From NCBI GenBank assembly GCA_964356495.1, contig CAYHHR010000002.1, positions 1-56,699 of the forward strand: 56,699 nt of DNA. Reading direction: 5' to 3'. The position numbers and the translations under genes were made by a program. Below, piece by piece: positions 3,339 through 46,664 of the stretch (the first letter of the stretch is position 1; each line of letters begins with the position of its first letter). The stretch is from an uncultured Gammaproteobacteria bacterium (GTDB taxonomy: Bacteria; Patescibacteriota; Patescibacteriia; Magasanikbacterales; GWA2-37-8). The notes under the pieces are model-generated. The model ran no database searches and had not been told where the DNA came from. It saw only the letters and a program-made list of their open reading frames with translations.

Positions 3339-5444
<2,106 letters not shown>

Positions 5445-5460
5445 TCACCTCTCTAGAGTT

Positions 5461-5489
5461 GTCATCCTGAGGGTTTCACCCGAAGGATC
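5461..5489 (+). repeat. Hairpin element after fusA ('ttgtcat'-prefixed)
   Basis: gtcatcctgagggtttcacccgaaggatc has an interrupted stem (atcct/aggat, gggt/accc). It shares its prefix with the elements at 1352 and 25419. Confidence 0.3.
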
Positions 5490-5538
5490 TCTGTTTCATA
5501 AACTTACACTTTTTTTCATCTCAGAAGTGTATAAGTAT

Positions 5539-6333: not shown

Positions 6334-8577
6334 ATGAAATTCAAACTCCACTCCGACTATCAACCCGCCGGCGATCAGCCGAAAGCAATCGAACAGCTGG
6401 TCGATGGCCTTGAAAAAAATTTGAAACGCCAGACTCTCCTCGGCGTCACCGGTTCCGGAAAAACGTTCACAATCGCGAACGTGATTGAACGTGTCCAAAA
6501 ACCAACGCTCGTCATCGCTCACAACAAAACTCTTGCCGCCCAACTCTGCAATGAGTTTCGGGAATTTTTTCCGAAGAATGCCGTGGAATATTTTGTCAGT
6601 TATTATGATTATTATCAGCCGGAAGCGTACATGCCGAATTCGGATACCTATATCGAAAAGGAAGCGATGATCAACGAGGAAATCGACCGTCTTCGTCATG
6701 CCTGCACACAGGCTCTGCTGACACGCGATGATACGATTATCGTTGCGTCTGTTTCCGCGATTTATGGTCTTGGGTCGCCGTTTGAATATGAAAAAATTGT
6801 TTTGCATTTGCGAAAAGGCCAGGAACTCGATCGCCGCGCGATGCTGGAGCAGTTGATCGCGATGCAATTTGAAAGGACGAACAGCGAACTAAAATGCGGT
6901 TCGTTCCGGATGCGCGGACAAGTTTTCGAGATCATGCCGGTCAACGAGGACGCGATTTATCGTTTTGAAATTTCTGCGAGGATAACGCAGATTGAATTGA
7001 TTGACTCAATCACGCGGATAGTGAAACGCGAGGTAGAGGACGTGTGGTTGTTTCCGGCCAGACATTATGTAGTCGGTGAGGAGGGGAGAAAGCAAGCGTT
7101 TGATCGCATCAATAATGAATTGCAGAATCAGCTGGCGCTTTTCGAAAAGCAGGGCAAAGTTTTGGAATACGAAAGGCTGAAGCGCCGGGTCGCATATGAT
7201 TTGCAAATGATTAAGAACGTCGGTTACTGCAACGGCATTGAAAATTATTCTCGCCACTTCGAAGGCAGGACGGAGGGTGAACCCCCGTTTACGCTGCTCG
7301 ATTATTTTTTGCATAGGACTCAGAGGACGGCAAACCCCACCCAACCTCCCCTTGGAAAGGGGAGGGGGACATTTCTCACCGTCATCGACGAATCACACGT
7401 CACGCTTCCGCAAATTCGCAGTATGTACAACGGTGACAAGGCGCGGAAAGATACTTTGGTGGAGCACGGTTTTCGCTTGCCGAGCGCGCGTGATAATCGC
7501 CCGCTTACTTATACTGAGTTTGATTCCAAAATCGGCCAGGCAGTTTATGTTTCGGCGACGCCGAGCGAGTATGAGATGAAAGTTAGCGAACAAATCGTGG
7601 AGCAAATCGTTCGTCCGACCGGTCTTATCGATCCCGAGGTTATCGTGCGTCCGATTGTTGGGCGAGCGAGACCTCTCTCCGGCTCTCTCCTTTGCGAAGG
7701 AGAGAGGGACGTTGAACCCTCGCCTCCGCAGAGGAGAGGGCAGGGAGAGGTCTCGCTGTCACAAATCGAAGATTTAATCTTGCGCATCGAGGAGCGGGTG
7801 AAAAATAACGAACGCGTACTCGTCACCACTCTCACCAAAAAGATGGCTGAGGATTTGACGGAACATTTGAAAGAGAAAAATCTGAAGGTGGCATACCTCC
7901 ACAGCGATGTTAGTACCCTTGATCGCATTGAGGTTATTATGAATTTGCGCCTCGGTAAAAATGATGTCATCGTCGGGGTGAACCTTCTTCGTGAAGGGCT
8001 CGATATGCCGGAAGTTTCATTGGTGGCGATCCTCGACGCCGACAAGGAAGGATTTTTGCGGAGCGAAACAAGTTTGATTCAGACGATCGGCCGCGCCGCG
8101 CGCAATGTGAACGGGCAAGTTGTTTTGTATGCCGACAATATTACTGGTTCGATGAAAAGAGCGATCGAAGAAACCAATCGTCGCCGCGAAATTCAGATGG
8201 CCTACAACAAAGAGCACGGCATTACTCCGAAGACCATCCAAAAAGCGATCCGAAATATTTTGGAGGAATTTGGAATTTCCGCTGATAAAGCGAAGAATCG
8301 CAGGGCTATCGCTCGGCGCGACCGGCTCGCGACGACTACTGAGCTTGATCTGATTGGCGACGGACGCACGATAAGTGTTATAATAAAAGAAAAGGAGACG
8401 CAGATGAAGCAAGCGGCGCAAGAATTGGATTTCGAATTAGCGGCGATTTTGCGAGATGAGATACGAGAGCTGAGAGCAAGAGAAAAAACGACCGGGGTCA
8501 AAGAATTAAAAAAACAAAAAAATAATTATCATACAGGGGTCGTTATTGGCTCCTCCCCCTCACCAAGGGGGAGTTAG
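6334..8577 (+). CDS. uvrB: Excinuclease ABC subunit B
   Basis: GVTGSGKTF (Walker A), VIDESHVT, LVTTLTKKMAEDLT, LREGLD.PEVSLVAILDADKEGFLRS and a C-terminal UVR motif. At 747 aa it is longer than typical UvrB because of three repeat-derived segments. Confidence 0.95.
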   Translation: MKFKLHSDYQPAGDQPKAIEQLVDGLEKNLKRQTLLGVTGSGKTFTIANVIERVQKPTLVIAHNKTLAAQLCNEFREFFPKNAVEYFVSYYDYYQPEAYMPNSDTYIEKEAMINEEIDRLRHACTQALLTRDDTIIVASVSAIYGLGSPFEYEKIVLHLRKGQELDRRAMLEQLIAMQFERTNSELKCGSFRMRGQVFEIMPVNEDAIYRFEISARITQIELIDSITRIVKREVEDVWLFPARHYVVGEEGRKQAFDRINNELQNQLALFEKQGKVLEYERLKRRVAYDLQMIKNVGYCNGIENYSRHFEGRTEGEPPFTLLDYFLHRTQRTANPTQPPLGKGRGTFLTVIDESHVTLPQIRSMYNGDKARKDTLVEHGFRLPSARDNRPLTYTEFDSKIGQAVYVSATPSEYEMKVSEQIVEQIVRPTGLIDPEVIVRPIVGRARPLSGSLLCEGERDVEPSPPQRRGQGEVSLSQIEDLILRIEERVKNNERVLVTTLTKKMAEDLTEHLKEKNLKVAYLHSDVSTLDRIEVIMNLRLGKNDVIVGVNLLREGLDMPEVSLVAILDADKEGFLRSETSLIQTIGRAARNVNGQVVLYADNITGSMKRAIEETNRRREIQMAYNKEHGITPKTIQKAIRNILEEFGISADKAKNRRAIARRDRLATTTELDLIGDGRTISVIIKEKETQMKQAAQELDFELAAILRDEIRELRAREKTTGVKELKKQKNNYHTGVVIGSSPSPRGS
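7321..7369 (+). repeat. Family B element, copy B1, in frame in uvrB
   Basis: ggcaaaccccacccaacctccccttggaaaggggaggggga encodes ANPTQPPLGKGRG just before the DESH box. It matches 8998..9050 and 45742..45783. Confidence 0.85.
7664..7757 (+). repeat. Family A element, copy A2, in frame in uvrB
   Basis: Near-identical to A1. It inserts about 31 aa between VRPIVG and QIEDL, which are contiguous in canonical UvrB. The terminal arms (agcgagacctctc...) are inverted. Confidence 0.9.
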
Positions 8578-8598
8578 AGGGGGTTTGCCTTCCTCTGC
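8548..8598 (-). repeat. Family B element, copy B2 (reverse orientation)
   Basis: ggctcctccccctcaccaagggggagttagagggggtttgcc is the reverse complement of the B consensus. It supplies the last roughly 10 codons and the stop codon of uvrB. Confidence 0.8.
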
Positions 8599-8630
8599 CC
8601 TGCCGAGAGTTGCCTGTCGTTCAATCGTTT

Positions 8631-9059
8631 ATGTCCAAAACAAACAATCTCACCGTACAAAAAAATCGCCGTCAGGACTTAAGGAGCAACATGTCTGTAC
8701 CGGAAAAAATATTATGGAAATGGATTAAAAATGAACAACTCGGCTATAAATTTCGTCGACAACATGGTATTAAACAGTTTATTGCGGATTTCTATTGTCC
8801 AATGTTGAGTTTAGTTATTGAAATCGACGGTCGGATTCATGGTGAGGAGCCTATTGCGACAAAAGATAAATATCGGGATAATGTTATGGTTGGACTGGGA
8901 CTAATTGTTAAACGTTATACGGCTACAGAAATAAATAATAATTTAGATTGGGTTTTGAGTGATTTGAAGAATTGTTGTAGCGAACTTGCCTCGGCGCCAC
9001 AGAGGAAGGCAAACCCCACCTACCCTCCCCTTGGAAAGGGGAGGGAGCCAATGTCGTGA
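8631..9059 (+). CDS. DUF559 (Vsr/restriction-endonuclease-like) domain protein
   Basis: PEKILWKWIKNEQLGYKFRRQH...ADFYCP..LVIEIDG..H matches the DUF559 pattern. The C-terminal roughly 17 aa are encoded by repeat B3. An alternative TTG start lies at 8610. Confidence 0.7.
   Translation: MSKTNNLTVQKNRRQDLRSNMSVPEKILWKWIKNEQLGYKFRRQHGIKQFIADFYCPMLSLVIEIDGRIHGEEPIATKDKYRDNVMVGLGLIVKRYTATEINNNLDWVLSDLKNCCSELASAPQRKANPTYPPLGKGREPMS
8998..9050 (+). repeat. Family B element, copy B3
   Basis: cagaggaaggcaaaccccacctaccctccccttggaaaggggagggagcc is inverted relative to B2 across the DUF559 gene. Confidence 0.85.
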
Positions 9060-9083
9060 TTAATGTGATTGAATAGTGTAACA

Positions 9084-9716
9084 ATGAAAAACCTAACTAA
9101 AAAATTAATCACAATAGTATCAGCGCTGTTTGTAATATTAGGAATTATTTTTTTAATTTTTGTAAATATTGATATCTTGCAGGAAAAAGCGTTTGTTTTT
9201 TTTCCACCCGACGTGCCCAGCGCCACGGTTGGCCTTATCTTTGGCGGTGGTCTGAACAAAGATGGCAGTTTGAATTCAATGGTCGCGGATCGGGTAGCCG
9301 CCGGAGTGGCCCTGCTACGTTCGGGTAAAGTCGGCGAACTTATGATCACAGGCGATGATGGTAGAATTCACAGTAACGAAGTCGATGCGATGAAAAATGC
9401 GGCGCTCGAGTTAGGCGTTCCGGCGGACAAAATTCTTGTTGATCGCCACGGTTATCGCACTTATGACAGTTGCTATCGCGCGGCCAAAGTTTATGGGATC
9501 AAAAGAGTAATCGCCGTTTCACAATTTTTTCATTTGCCGAGGATAATTTTCCTTTGTGAGCATTTCGGGATCAGCACCACCGGTGTCGCGGCGGACTTTC
9601 GGAATTATGGGTTTGATTCAATTTATATGAATATTCGTGAAGTCGGAGCGAGGCTAAAAGCGTGGTGGCAGGTGAATATTTCCAGACCGGAACCGTTGGT
9701 ATTAAGCAAAGATTAA
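9084..9716 (+). CDS. SanA/YdcF (DUF218) family membrane protein
   Basis: N-terminal TM segment followed by GLIFGGG...ITGDDG...E...M...A...GVP...I..D..G..T..S, typical of SanA/DUF218. An alternative TTG start lies at 9069. Confidence 0.7.
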   Translation: MKNLTKKLITIVSALFVILGIIFLIFVNIDILQEKAFVFFPPDVPSATVGLIFGGGLNKDGSLNSMVADRVAAGVALLRSGKVGELMITGDDGRIHSNEVDAMKNAALELGVPADKILVDRHGYRTYDSCYRAAKVYGIKRVIAVSQFFHLPRIIFLCEHFGISTTGVAADFRNYGFDSIYMNIREVGARLKAWWQVNISRPEPLVLSKD

Positions 9717-12388: not shown

Positions 12389-12820
12389 ATGAACAGTCAA
12401 CATCTCAAGAAAACGCTCCAGCTAATTCGCCGCACTGGTGATAAAGGAATAATTATCGATGAGGAAAGCGATGAACTTTTTGTGCTCATGAATGTTGAGG
12501 CGTATGAAAAGATGCTGCCACCGGTTGAAGAAATGTTGACCAACCCACCCCTACCCCGCCCAAGCGGGGAATTGCCGCGACAGGACCTTACTCGTTTAGA
12601 GGAATCGCTAGATGATTTTGTTCCGGATGATTTTGCTGAAGTAGAGGAACCACGTCGTGTCGCCCCTAGCATACCGGCCGCTCCGATTAGTTTCGCAAAA
12701 GCGGTCGAGCCGGTGGCATTTGAATTCAAACAACATAGCGTCAATCGCGAAGAAAGCCTCGCGGATGTTCCTCACGACGGCGAAGAAGAGGAGAAATTTT
12801 ACCTCGAACCAGTGGAATAG
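12389..12820 (+). CDS. Hypothetical acidic protein with a Phd/YefM-like N-terminus
   Basis: 143 aa. The N-terminus (..ELFVLMNVEAYEKM) resembles the Phd/YefM antitoxin fold. The C-terminal half is acidic. Contains the in-frame repeat C1. Confidence 0.45.
   Translation: MNSQHLKKTLQLIRRTGDKGIIIDEESDELFVLMNVEAYEKMLPPVEEMLTNPPLPRPSGELPRQDLTRLEESLDDFVPDDFAEVEEPRRVAPSIPAAPISFAKAVEPVAFEFKQHSVNREESLADVPHDGEEEEKFYLEPVE
12539..12572 (+). repeat. Family C element, copy C1, in frame
   Basis: ccaacccacccctaccccgcccaagcggggaatt encodes NPPLPRPSGEL. It matches 46009..46042 in the same frame and 25385..25417 as reverse complement. Confidence 0.85.
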
Positions 12821-25381: not shown

Positions 25382-25384
25382 GTA

Positions 25385-25417
25385 TTCCCCGCTTGGGCGG
25401 GGTAGGGGTGGGTTGGC
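25385..25417 (-). repeat. Family C element, copy C2 (intergenic, reverse orientation)
   Basis: ttccccgcttgggcggggtaggggtgggttggc is the reverse complement of C1 and C3. Confidence 0.85.
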
Positions 25418-44504: not shown

Positions 44505-46664
44505 ATGGTTCATATGGATCTCCAAACTAGGATCGAAGCTCTAAACAAAGTCGGGAAGACGACTGCTAAAAAGCTGGAACGGCTTGGTATTTTTACTGTT
44601 AATAATTTACTTCATCATTATCCGTTTCGTTACGAAGATTTTAGCCGCGTCGCGCCGATCAAGGATTTGCGCGAGGGCGATTCGGTGACGGTGAAAGGCG
44701 TGATTGAATTGATCGCCAATCGTCGGATTCGCAACCGACGCAGTCTTACCGAAGCCCTGCTTACCGATGAGACCGGCAGTATCAGGCTGATCTGGTTTAA
44801 TCAGCCGTACCTCACAAAAAATCTCGAGACCGGCACGGAAGTATATATTTCCGGCGTGATAAAACATGATGCGCTCGGTTTGCAGTTCGTGAGTCCCGCC
44901 TATGAATTAGCCTCGCGACGTAATATTCACACCGCTCGCCTGGTGCCGATGTATCCTCTCACCGAAGGGATCACACAGAAGCAGGTGAGATTTTTGGTTG
45001 AGCAATCATTGCCGGCCGCGCCAACCATAAGTGATTGGTTGCCGGAGAAAATTAAGAAGGAAAATAATCTGATCGCGTTGCAGGGGGCGATTAAGCAAAT
45101 TCATTTTCCAGAATCTGACGCGCAAATGAATTTGGCCACCGAGCGTCTGAAGTTTGATGAATTATTTTTGATTCAGCTCCAGGCGGAACTCGCTCGCCAC
45201 GAGCAAACTATTCTAAGGGCGCCAGTGTTGGCATTTCATGAGGAAGAAATAAAAAAGTTTGTGGCTGGTCTGCCGTTTACTCTCACCAAGGATCAAAAAA
45301 TTTCGGCTTGGGAAATTCTACAAAATATTGCCGGCGAAGTGCCGATGAACCGGCTGTTGTCCGGCGACGTCGGATCCGGCAAGACCGTGGTCGCCGCCGT
45401 TGCTCTCTACAATACCGTTCTTTCCGGTTTCCAGGGGATCATGATGGCGCCAACGGAGATTTTGGCAACGCAGCATTTTGATTCGGTCTGCAGATTGTTG
45501 CAGGATCAGACGCTAGTATTGTTTACTCGTTCACATCATTTAATATTTAAGAATCGAGAGAAGTTCGAGGTTTCAAAGAAAGAACTGCAAAAGATAATCG
45601 CCACCGGCGAAGCGAACGTGATCATTGGGACGCATGCTTTGCTGTCGGAAGGGGTTGAGTTTAAAAATGTTGGCCTCGTGGTCGTGGACGAACAGCATCG
45701 TTTCGGAGTATTGCAGAGGAAAGTGATTAAGAGCAAAGGAGGGCAAACCCCACCTAACCTCCCCTTGGAAAGGGGAGGGAGCCACGCCGTGCACTTTCTC
45801 AGCATGACGGCGACGCCGATCCCGCGTTCGCTCGCTCTGATGGTCTATGGTGATCTTGATGTTTCTGTAATCAGAGAAATGCCGCCGGGAAGAAAACCGG
45901 TTATGACCAGGATCGTCGAGCCGCGAAATCGCGACAAGGCTTATGAATTTATTCGAAAAGAAGTTGGGAAAGGCGGACAGGTGTTTGTGGTTTGTCCGTT
46001 GATTGACGCCAACCCACCCCTACCCCGTCCGAGCGGGGACTTCATTGTGAATGATAAAAAATCGGTAATGACTGAATACAAAAAATTATCTGAAAATATT
46101 TTTCCGAATTTGAGAGTCAATTATCTCCACGGTAAGATGAAAGGTGAAGAAAAAGAAAAAATAATGGCGCAGTTTAAAAATAAGGAATATGATATTCTGG
46201 TTTCGACTTCGGTGATCGAAGTCGGAGTGGATGTGCCAAACGCGACCATTATGTTGATCGAGGGAGCCGAGCGGTTTGGGTTGGCGCAGCTGCATCAGTT
46301 CAGAGGGAGAGTGGGGAGGGGCGACCGGCAGTCTTATTGTTTTGTATTTACGGACAGCGAGACCTCTCCCTACCCTCTCCTCTGTGGAGGCGAGGGTTCA
46401 CGAACTATGGAGCGGTTGCGTTTTTTTGAAAAACATCAGAACGGTTTCGAGCTGGCCGAAAAAGATTTGGAGTTGCGTGGTCCCGGGGAAGTCTATGGGA
46501 CGACGCAGAGCGGAATGATGCAACTCCGCCTAGCTAAGCTTTCGGACACCGCGTTAATAAAAAAAGCCCGCGAGTCAGCGCGAGTTATTTCATCTCAACT
46601 TTCAGAATTCCCGGAGCTCATTAAAAAAATGAAAGAGTGGGAAGAGTCGGTGCACTTAGAATGA
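44505..46664 (+). CDS. recG: ATP-dependent DNA helicase RecG
   Basis: Wedge/OB N-terminal domain, then GDVGSGKT, VVDEQHRFGV, MTATPIPRSLA, VIEVGVDVPNA and FRGRVGRG. Carries three in-frame repeat insertions. Confidence 0.95.
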   Translation: MVHMDLQTRIEALNKVGKTTAKKLERLGIFTVNNLLHHYPFRYEDFSRVAPIKDLREGDSVTVKGVIELIANRRIRNRRSLTEALLTDETGSIRLIWFNQPYLTKNLETGTEVYISGVIKHDALGLQFVSPAYELASRRNIHTARLVPMYPLTEGITQKQVRFLVEQSLPAAPTISDWLPEKIKKENNLIALQGAIKQIHFPESDAQMNLATERLKFDELFLIQLQAELARHEQTILRAPVLAFHEEEIKKFVAGLPFTLTKDQKISAWEILQNIAGEVPMNRLLSGDVGSGKTVVAAVALYNTVLSGFQGIMMAPTEILATQHFDSVCRLLQDQTLVLFTRSHHLIFKNREKFEVSKKELQKIIATGEANVIIGTHALLSEGVEFKNVGLVVVDEQHRFGVLQRKVIKSKGGQTPPNLPLERGGSHAVHFLSMTATPIPRSLALMVYGDLDVSVIREMPPGRKPVMTRIVEPRNRDKAYEFIRKEVGKGGQVFVVCPLIDANPPLPRPSGDFIVNDKKSVMTEYKKLSENIFPNLRVNYLHGKMKGEEKEKIMAQFKNKEYDILVSTSVIEVGVDVPNATIMLIEGAERFGLAQLHQFRGRVGRGDRQSYCFVFTDSETSPYPLLCGGEGSRTMERLRFFEKHQNGFELAEKDLELRGPGEVYGTTQSGMMQLRLAKLSDTALIKKARESARVISSQLSEFPELIKKMKEWEESVHLE
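45742..45783 (+). repeat. Family B element, copy B4, in frame in recG
   Basis: ggcaaaccccacctaacctccccttggaaaggggagggagcc is read in a different frame from B1 and B3 (QTPPNLPLERGGS). It lies between helicase motifs II and III. Confidence 0.85.
46009..46042 (+). repeat. Family C element, copy C3, in frame in recG
   Basis: ccaacccacccctaccccgtccgagcggggactt encodes NPPLPRPSGDF, in the same frame as C1. Confidence 0.85.
46356..46402 (-). repeat. Family A half-element, copy A3 (reverse orientation), in frame in recG
   Basis: agcgagacctctccctaccctctcctctgtggaggcgagggttca is the reverse complement of the right half of A1 and A2. It encodes ETSPYPLLCGGEGS. Confidence 0.8.

Follow-up and report, generated by a model that had tools for sequence, protein, structure and literature searches.

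Contig CAYHHR010000002.1 (GenBank assembly GCA_964356495.1), analysed here over positions 1 to 56,699 (the window), carries between its uvrB gene and a sanA-like gene a short unit, positions 8545-9052, in which a gene for a DUF559 nuclease is framed by terminal inverted repeats built as triplex motifs. This is probably a compact mobile unit, the movement of which its own nuclease would drive. The host is a Patescibacterium, Magasanikbacteria-like; the closest genomes by UvrB are those of Candidatus Magasanikbacteria, and the DUF559 product is recorded on contigs of assemblies from the Hainich groundwater well H41. A first-pass annotation of this DNA had suggested that a small mobile cassette lies here, bounded by copies of a repeat family called B. 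Empty junctions in relatives and the recurrence of the unit in other contexts support that hypothesis.

A repeat search of the window delimits the two terminal inverted repeats (arms), each with a predicted single-stranded DNA hairpin. The left arm (B2, reverse orientation) occupies 8545-8607 on the minus strand and the right arm (B3, forward orientation) 8990-9052 on the plus strand. They are 63 nt each and 79% complementary, with 382 nt between them, and the DUF559 open reading frame (ORF) that they bracket is intact, as had been described. The outer ends (GGCTCC... and ...GGAGCC) and the inner ends (...GGGGTTTGCCTTCCTCTG and CAGAGGAAGGCAAACCCC) agree with the earlier description, and so does the imperfect inverted repeat; the length of 42-50 bp given for it falls short, the arms reaching further inward, to ...GCCGAG (63 nt). 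On the plus strand, the left arm runs from its outer end ATTGGCTCC through a C-rich block (CTCCCCCT, 8553-8560), a loop (8561-8565), a G-rich block (AGGGGGAG, 8566-8573), a TTA linker (8574-8576) and a mirror third segment (GAGGGGG, 8577-8583) to the inner end GTTTGCCTTCCTCTG..GCCGAG. The right arm, read on the same strand, consists of the inner end GCCTCGGCGCCACAGAGGAAGGCAAA, the complement of the third segment (CCCCACC, 9014-9020), a TA linker, a C-rich block (CCCTCCCCTT, 9023-9032), a GGA loop, a G-rich block (AAGGGGAGGG, 9036-9045) and the outer end AGCCAAT. As single-stranded DNA, the left-arm hairpin is predicted to have 8 pairs and -13.1 kcal/mol and the right-arm hairpin 10 pairs and -12.7 kcal/mol, within the -11 to -14.6 kcal/mol predicted for the hairpins.

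The arms also supply coding sequence, a point that we add to the earlier description. The left arm provides the last codons of uvrB (6334-8577, plus strand) and its TAG stop codon (8575-8577), which lies within the TTAG of the linker; compared with its relatives, this UvrB has 12-16 additional C-terminal residues. The uvrB 3′ end is thus remodelled by the cassette insertion. At the other end, the right arm encodes the final ~20 codons (ASAPQRKANPTYPPLGKGREPMS) and the stop of the DUF559 gene (8631-9059, plus strand; identified by Pfam match and homologue alignment), beyond which the sanA-like DUF218 gene follows (9084-9716, plus strand). A short leader (8608-8630, plus strand) connects the left arm to the DUF559 start codon; its length differs among homologous units, and it is absent in one of them (L178; loci retrieved for comparison bear L numbers). 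The enclosed segment, previously described as looking more AT-rich than its neighbours, has a G+C content of 0.365-0.38 (8600-8999), lower than that of uvrB (0.45-0.58) and of the window overall (0.465). We rejected the arms as classical terminators because they have no T tract. A promoter and terminator scan of 8350-9250 gave nothing above chance, an Rfam search of the window returned three tRNAs only, so the arms match no known RNA family, and tblastn detected no second DUF559 paralogue in the window.

The junction that the unit occupies is empty in relatives, whose junction contigs we found via SanA-like homologues. In L173/L174 (UvrB 91% and SanA 88% identical) and in L176 (UvrB 90%, SanA 69%), which share the S7-EF-G-uvrB-sanA synteny of the window, uvrB runs into the start codon of sanA, with neither a DUF559 gene nor a B arm present. 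In L014, from a more distant Magasanikbacterium, uvrB overlaps sanA with nothing between. The empty uvrB-sanA junctions for which a search had been recommended are therefore present, and the cassette is an insertion at that site. A comparable situation exists around ksgA: L008 and L012 have a common RF1-Sua5-DUF4015-KsgA synteny, and L008 carries a DUF559 unit on each side of ksgA, while the ksgA flanks in L012 are short, repeat-free and empty intergenic DNA. Insertion of the unit as a whole is favoured because the empty sites lack arms. In L175 (SanA 80%), the uvrB/sanA junction (2085-2125) holds a solo triplex motif of another family, TCTCCCC-TCTTA-GGGGAGA-GGCGAG-GAGAGGGG; the junction has therefore been hit independently.

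Two small features adjoin these junctions. Compared with L176, the empty junction of L173 (4985-4997) is longer by 12 nt, and the added stretch includes GCGCCGAGG, the very sequence with which the right arm of the unit ends on its inner side (8990-8998, reverse-complemented). This could be a footprint or a coincidence, for which the rough probability is 1-2%. In the window, the left flank of the cassette (8515-8545, ACAAAAAAATAATTATCATACAGGGG) resembles the ancestral sanA start region of L176 (ACATGCAAAAAAATAAAAAATTATTATTGTCAGGCGG), and a complete sanA start is found on the right-hand side (9084-9125). This flank may be a duplicated target region, in a stretch that is A+T-rich and aligns weakly.

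The same design occurs at other places. The six nearest homologous units, with 58-76% protein identity, are found in six different gene neighbourhoods: PBP/ruvB (L005), ksgA/hypothetical (L008), Sm_multidrug_ex/prfA (L012), a short contig (L093), gap/hypothetical (L178) and vanW/hypothetical (L179), as compared to uvrB/sanA in the window. Inverted B-type arms bracket each of the six, so that the inverted-repeat framing sought in other DUF559 genes was found in all of these. Border alignments of five units (window, L005, L008, L012 and L093) show that homology begins at ..GGCTCC and ends at GGAGCC.., with unrelated flanks outside. The arm-gene-arm unit travels as a whole between unrelated sites. 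The first-pass annotation had pointed out that two independent B insertions around a resident DUF559 gene would look the same. Solo B arms do enter other places (uvrB and recG), and the solo repeat at the L175 junction belongs to another family, but the gene is not resident, being absent from the junction in close relatives, and the arm-gene-arm arrangement is repeated in the six other contexts. Recurrent armed units and empty junctions thus contradict this explanation and leave it very unlikely indeed.

Two subtypes of arm can be told apart, one with the stem CTCCCCC and the third block GAGGGGG, the other with the stem CCTCCCC and the third block GGTGGGG. Arms of one subtype are 92-98% identical across loci, even though the synonymous sites of the genes that they frame are close to saturation. 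Most units hold one arm of each subtype, with the sides swapped between the window and L012, on the one hand, and L005 (5926-5984 and 6360-6418), on the other; a pairing of type A with type B is likewise seen in E. coli (Holder et al. 2015, PMC4666352). The swap looks as if the gene had been flipped in evolution, as it would be by a programmed inversion switch with the inverted repeats for recombination sites, and DUF559 proteins are enriched (odds ratio 14) among the predicted targets of programmed inversion, i.e., genes overlapped by inverted repeats, in an independent genome-wide screen (PMC9881135). We nevertheless find such a switch highly doubtful: no recombinase gene occurs within ~5 kb, no strand-switch joints were seen in four runs from the source environment (contigs only), and both the presence/absence polymorphism and the different contexts would be left unexplained.

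The enclosed gene encodes a protein of the Vsr/restriction-endonuclease fold, as first proposed. Its ORF matches Pfam PF04480 (DUF559) with E=1.1e-23 (83.6 bits, cut-off 20.6), the sole significant Pfam match in the unit; MTES_1575, a related restriction-endonuclease-type family, matches weakly and below its cut-off (E=0.004), and a Y1 HUH transposase (TnpA_REP) was not found in the unit. The protein is 142 aa from ATG 8631; gene callers chose ATG 8691, giving 122 aa, and we place the start at 8631 because the N-terminal MSKTNNL..RRQ.LRNNM is conserved among homologues. The DUF559 domain alone covers the protein, with no NUMOD or helix-turn-helix (HTH) region. Across 100 homologues, no substitution occurs at E25, D53, E64 or D66, and H70 and D79 are kept in at least 90%. 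By alignment rather than superposition, these residues would correspond to E25/D51/H69/D97 of Vsr, the catalytic positions having been described for the active site of Vsr and I-Bth0305I (PMC3239194). The AlphaFold2 (AF2) model of the protein (mean confidence score, pLDDT, 83.6) gave in Foldseek a best match to 3HRL (E=3.7e-7; TM-score 0.84 on target), followed by 3R3P, the catalytic domain of I-Bth0305I (E=6e-4), and a weak match to 1VSR, Vsr itself (E=0.39). By sequence, 3HRL (E=4e-10) is the only match in the PDB. This structure is NGO0050, of the same Pfam family as YcjD of E. coli. Pairwise ratios of non-synonymous to synonymous change (dN/dS) are 0.04-0.13 among five units, with synonymous sites near saturation (pS 0.4-0.9); judging from these sequences, the gene is evidently under purifying selection and kept functional. 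One search returned at least 1,476 DUF559 homologues at E<=1e-5. A reading of the gene as a defence system was rejected, PADLOC having given weak matches only, to nuclease domains.

What the earlier reading had missed is that B, to judge by its sequence, is an intrastrand triplex motif of a known and widespread class, that of the E. coli boxC/TMECO repeats. Each arm consists of a C-rich block, a loop, a complementary G-rich block, a linker of 2-3 nt and, as the third block, a G-rich one in mirror image to the second. The left arm reads CTCCCCCT-CACCA-AGGGGGAG-TTA-GAGGGGG, and the complement of the right arm CCCTCCCCTT-TCC-AAGGGGAGGG-TA-GGTGGGG. Both fit the three-block rule of triplex motifs (G.G-C / A.A-T / T.A-T mirror), and their stems (8 and 10 pairs), loops (5 and 3 nt) and linkers (3 and 2 nt) are within the limits set by Holder et al. 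(2015) for such motifs (stem 6-15 nt, loops 1-6 nt). We counted 413 asymmetric C/G hairpins over all fetched loci: a perfect mirror segment comes next in 165 of them, a perfect direct copy in 10, and the number after shuffling is 3. From where the odd base lies in the stem, the place of the A or T in the third block can be predicted: GGAGGGG occurs with GGGGTGG or GGGGAGG, and GGGGGAG with GAGGGGG. Third-strand pairing in B is read from this co-variation, the energy prediction covering the hairpin part. The window has 20 triplex-type motifs, as against 0-5 (mean about 1) in shuffles. In some arm families (at L093, 258-336, and at L100, L118 and L161), an extra small hairpin sits within the linker and the third block is retained, as expected if that block must fold back onto the stem.

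The E. coli TMECO/boxC repeat forms a triplex by circular dichroism and nuclear magnetic resonance (Holder et al. 2015, PMC4666352). It shares with B the succession of a pyrimidine block, a complementary purine block and a mirroring third purine block (Hoyne 2000, as cited in Holder et al.; PMC4666352), as well as the mirror rule, with G opposite G and A or T opposite A, and the many dispersed copies, often in inverted pairs of two subtypes; its consensus is CCCTCNCCC-N3-6-GGGNGAGGG-N3-GGGNGAGGG, to be compared with the left arm above. Unlike TMECO, B motifs form the ends of a nuclease-carrying unit, sit in frame in essential genes and belong to a different sequence family. Holder et al. (2015, PMC4666352) stated that mobility functions were never found near triplex motifs.

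Flanking triplex motifs are strongly and widely associated with this DUF559 clade. We scanned metagenome contigs from many environments with a DUF559 alignment and obtained 80 loci, 37-53% identical to the query except for two contigs from the source well. Flanking inverted repeats were scored by the best local alignment of the left flank with the reverse complement of the right flank, with non-overlapped ORFs of the same loci as controls. A score of at least 20 was reached by 31 of 69 diverged DUF559 loci versus 12 of 214 control ORFs (odds ratio 13.7, p=4e-13). The strict triplex motif is present within 170 nt upstream at 57 of 75 loci (76%), within 200 nt downstream at 54 of 75 (72%) and on both sides at 44 of 75 (59%), against a background of 0.134 per kb; this clade is flanked by triplex motifs far more often than other genes are. 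The motifs have a preferred orientation of roughly 2:1, with the triplex strand running from outside to inside (53 vs 23 upstream, 48 vs 26 downstream). Nuclease similarity and arm similarity are correlated (Mantel r=0.26, p=0.001; p=0.006 without the B clade). Two of the highest-scoring "control" genes are themselves a small GIY-YIG nuclease gene (L098, 933-1226) and a 23S rRNA intervening-sequence protein gene (L107, 3884-4234), and further very small genes of these genomes may be bounded by repeats in a comparable way.

The link between nuclease and repeat appears to extend to ycjD of E. coli. In strain K-12 (NC_000913.3, about 1351200-1351450; L177, 3700-3950), the end of the gene falls within a degenerate hairpin of triplex-like type (..RRSPSP*). 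Some 150 nt further downstream come a duplicated piece of the ycjD 3′ terminus and the TMECO that Holder et al. number 9, which is ~170 nt away from the gene; by a rough estimate, the probability of this proximity by chance is about 0.005. Unlike the cassette, ycjD has repeats on its 3′ side only, and among the full-length matches listed, all are at one fixed locus, that of sapF, between fabI and sapF. The stretch of ycjD plus TMECO was matched over at least 80% of the query in 3377 of 5426 complete E. coli genomes; it occupies the place that the eefRABCD operon has in other phylogroups (PMC12817139).

That single fixed locus is what a domesticated gene would show, and it fits an explanation in which the cassette is mobile and the nuclease is not its engine. 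The enzyme would then be a repair or processing enzyme at triplex hairpins, relieving the trouble that these cause to replication or transcription, so that linkage is favoured, or else a hitch-hiking defence nuclease. Triplex motifs are tied to local genome instability (PMC4666352), relatives of Vsr are repair nickases, and the weak PADLOC matches concern nuclease domains of DpdF and of methyl-directed restriction enzymes. We judge this explanation improbable, since it accounts neither for the exact end of homology at the outer arm ends in seven contexts nor for the preferred inward orientation of the motifs and the co-variation of nuclease and arm. It also needs another mobilising enzyme, and none is seen nearby: there is no DDE or serine/tyrosine transposase in the unit or within ~5 kb.

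We return to the nuclease as the probable engine. In the mechanism that we propose, the unit would have entered the uvrB/sanA junction whole, arms included; the nuclease would recognise or cut its own structured arms, or the sites that they enter, and would thereby drive the movement of the unit and, in trans, that of gene-less arm pairs and solo arms. The symmetry of the arms, the lack of duplications and the type of nuclease agree with two routes: movement might follow structure-specific cleavage, completed by host repair or copying, or it might take the form of homing into gene-less arm pairs. Action of the nuclease on the arms or their targets, like the transposition chemistry, is something that we infer; all the data agree with the first-pass idea of B elements mobilised by the nuclease. 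Target-site duplications, for which a search had likewise been suggested, proved not to be consistent: none recurs at the ends of the B-type units inspected, which argues for a break-and-repair or single-strand route over DDE-type transposition. A 5-nt direct repeat, GTCGT, occurs at the window cassette alone and is possibly due to chance.

Such a partnership would be like that of REP and RAYT, with another enzyme and a triplex-forming repeat. As in a REPtron, one small nuclease-type gene lies between inverted copies of a short dispersed hairpin repeat, solo and paired copies exist, each enzyme clade has its own repeat family, and there are no target-site duplications. The differences are that the enzyme is a Vsr-fold relative of the PD-(D/E)xK type rather than a Y1 HUH transposase, and that a third, triplex-forming segment is part of the repeat. 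Whereas RAYT genes mostly stay in place as they are inherited, the cassette changes its genomic location between related genomes. By analogy, the unit looks like a variant on the repeat-plus-enzyme partnerships of REP/RAYT and of homing endonucleases.

Gene-less arm pairs are abundant in the source community. In the four runs, arm depth is 200-330x versus ~10x for the flanks, and several contigs carry an arm in reverse complement, a spacer of 32-39 nt and an arm, without the gene. Directly after the DUF559 gene in L008 lies another gene-less arm-spacer-arm (5388-5517), and spacers are 25-39 nt across L008 and the runs (X1-X4). We rejected the idea that this form derives from the unit by deletion, the spacer (TTGAGCAAACGTGACATTGTC..CGAGTCGCAA) being dissimilar to the unit interior. 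Apparent "skips" in the runs are other loci with gene-less arm pairs and not empty alleles of the cassette site. One contig of run X1 joins 9048 to 8547 ("goes back 502"), a joint between the outer ends of the right and left arms; back-to-back arms elsewhere, a tandem copy or a circle junction would give the same joint, and contigs cannot discriminate among these.

Gene-less pairs bear on an alternative in which DUF559 is a free-standing homing endonuclease parasitising triplex repeats that spread otherwise: it would cut the gene-less arm-spacer-arm, and repair of the break would copy the gene in, with the arms as homology. In fold and active site the protein agrees with I-Bth0305I, an EDxHD homing endonuclease; gene-less pairs are abundant, there is no target-site duplication, and the arms are near-identical between copies, as expected if they are used as homology. 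However, the orthologous empty sites (L173, L176, L014 and the ksgA flanks of L012) hold no arms, which means that arms and gene arrived jointly or one after the other; the protein lacks the NUMOD/HTH DNA-binding module of I-Bth0305I, and the gene-less spacer is unrelated to the borders of the gene. Homing of this kind is, in our assessment, rather unlikely. The unit does share the catalytic fold and the conserved acidic and histidine residues with EDxHD homing endonucleases (I-Bth0305I, PDB 3R3P; PMC3239194), a family with known free-standing members, and a selfish lifestyle is plausible for it. Unlike them, it is neither in an intron nor in an intein and is not tied to one host gene, occupying seven unrelated intergenic contexts with inverted repeats of its own.

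Several observations weigh against a nuclease-driven mobile unit. At 142 aa with no obvious extra DNA-binding domain, the protein is unlikely to be a stand-alone transposase. On either side taken singly, the strict motif is missing from about a quarter of DUF559 loci, and in E. coli, some genomes have only the TMECO part of the ycjD query, so that triplex repeats persist there without DUF559. The spacer of the gene-less pairs is unrelated to the unit interior, and these pairs are therefore not simple deletion derivatives of it. No excised circle, population-level empty allele or inversion was seen in the four runs, which as contigs are blind to rare variants. The empty sites belong to relatives and not to the same strain; a stepwise origin, with the arms first and the gene later, would therefore also be possible.

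Solo arms occur within conserved genes, as had been noted, and both copies were found in frame. B1 (51 nt; 7321-7371, plus strand) lies inside uvrB, where it encodes the peptide ..RTANPTQPPLGKGRGT.., and B4 (45734-45784, plus strand) inside recG, with the peptide ..GQTPPNLPLERGGS..; the latter gene carries the RecG wedge and helicase domains. A 51-nt unit, CAGAGGAAGGCAAACCCCACCTAACCTCCCCTTGGAAAGGGGAGGGAGCCA, is common to all four B copies of the window (7321-7371, plus; 8545-8597, minus; 9000-9050, plus; 45734-45784, plus). Their 18-nt inner motif, CAGAGGAAGGCAAACCCC, has 4 copies in the window at up to 3 mismatches, starting at 7321 (+), 8580 (-), 9000 (+) and 45734 (+), versus 0.05 expected from shuffles. 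Like miniature inverted-repeat transposable elements (MITEs) and Rickettsia palindromic elements, these are short non-autonomous inverted-repeat elements, and, as with the Rickettsia elements, conserved genes harbour the solo B copies in frame. Unlike MITEs, they have no DDE transposase partner and no target-site duplication, and a solo arm is just 51 nt.

We rejected B1 as a fresh insertion in uvrB. At the corresponding site, L173 (3830-3850) and L176 (3420-3440) retain only a GGCAA(A/G)C...GGGA remnant, i.e., the ends of B1 without the hairpin core; L014 has nothing there, and L013, a more distant genome, has a B-like motif (about 4620-4670). The solo arm in uvrB is thus polymorphic, and B1 is more likely an old insertion, the structured core of which was later lost, almost precisely, in the close relatives. 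A second repeat in frame in uvrB (window 7655-7760) belongs to a longer palindromic family, also present at 819-906 and 46353-46400; at the same uvrB codon position, L173 has a different insertion (about 4170-4290) and L176 none. Both this loop of UvrB and the B1 site have the look of hot spots where insertions are tolerated. In L008 (3451-3989), a second DUF559 gene, 41% identical, is flanked by a repeat family of its own, ATTCCCCGCTTGGGCGGGGTAGGGGTGGGTTGG, solo copies of which are found in the window at 12540-12572, 25384-25416 and 46009-46042, one of them in recG; the cognate nuclease gene of that family is not in the window.

More tentatively, as a possibility that we would not yet call probable, DUF559/YcjD-type nucleases may be the missing cognate enzymes of boxC/TMECO-like triplex repeats, the two together forming widespread, unrecognised tiny mobile elements. 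Our literature search turned up no report linking a DUF559 nuclease to triplex repeats; its coverage is incomplete, and an earlier description elsewhere is possible. For the annotation of such loci, caution is called for, as repeats can supply the ends of adjacent genes as well as the tail of the nuclease itself. If the proposal is true, it would join two orphans, a very large DUF559 family without assigned function and triplex repeats without known origin or mobility, into a new minimal mobile element of ~500 bp. Its nuclease would be structure-specific and would read the hairpin-plus-third-strand fold at the ends of the element, spreading full units, gene-less pairs and solo arms, and no enzyme before it would have been shown to recognise DNA by an intramolecular triplex. 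The proposal would explain the in-frame short repeats inside uvrB, recG and ksgA in these reduced genomes and, more widely, the genome instability around triplex repeats, which are found in hundreds of bacterial genomes.

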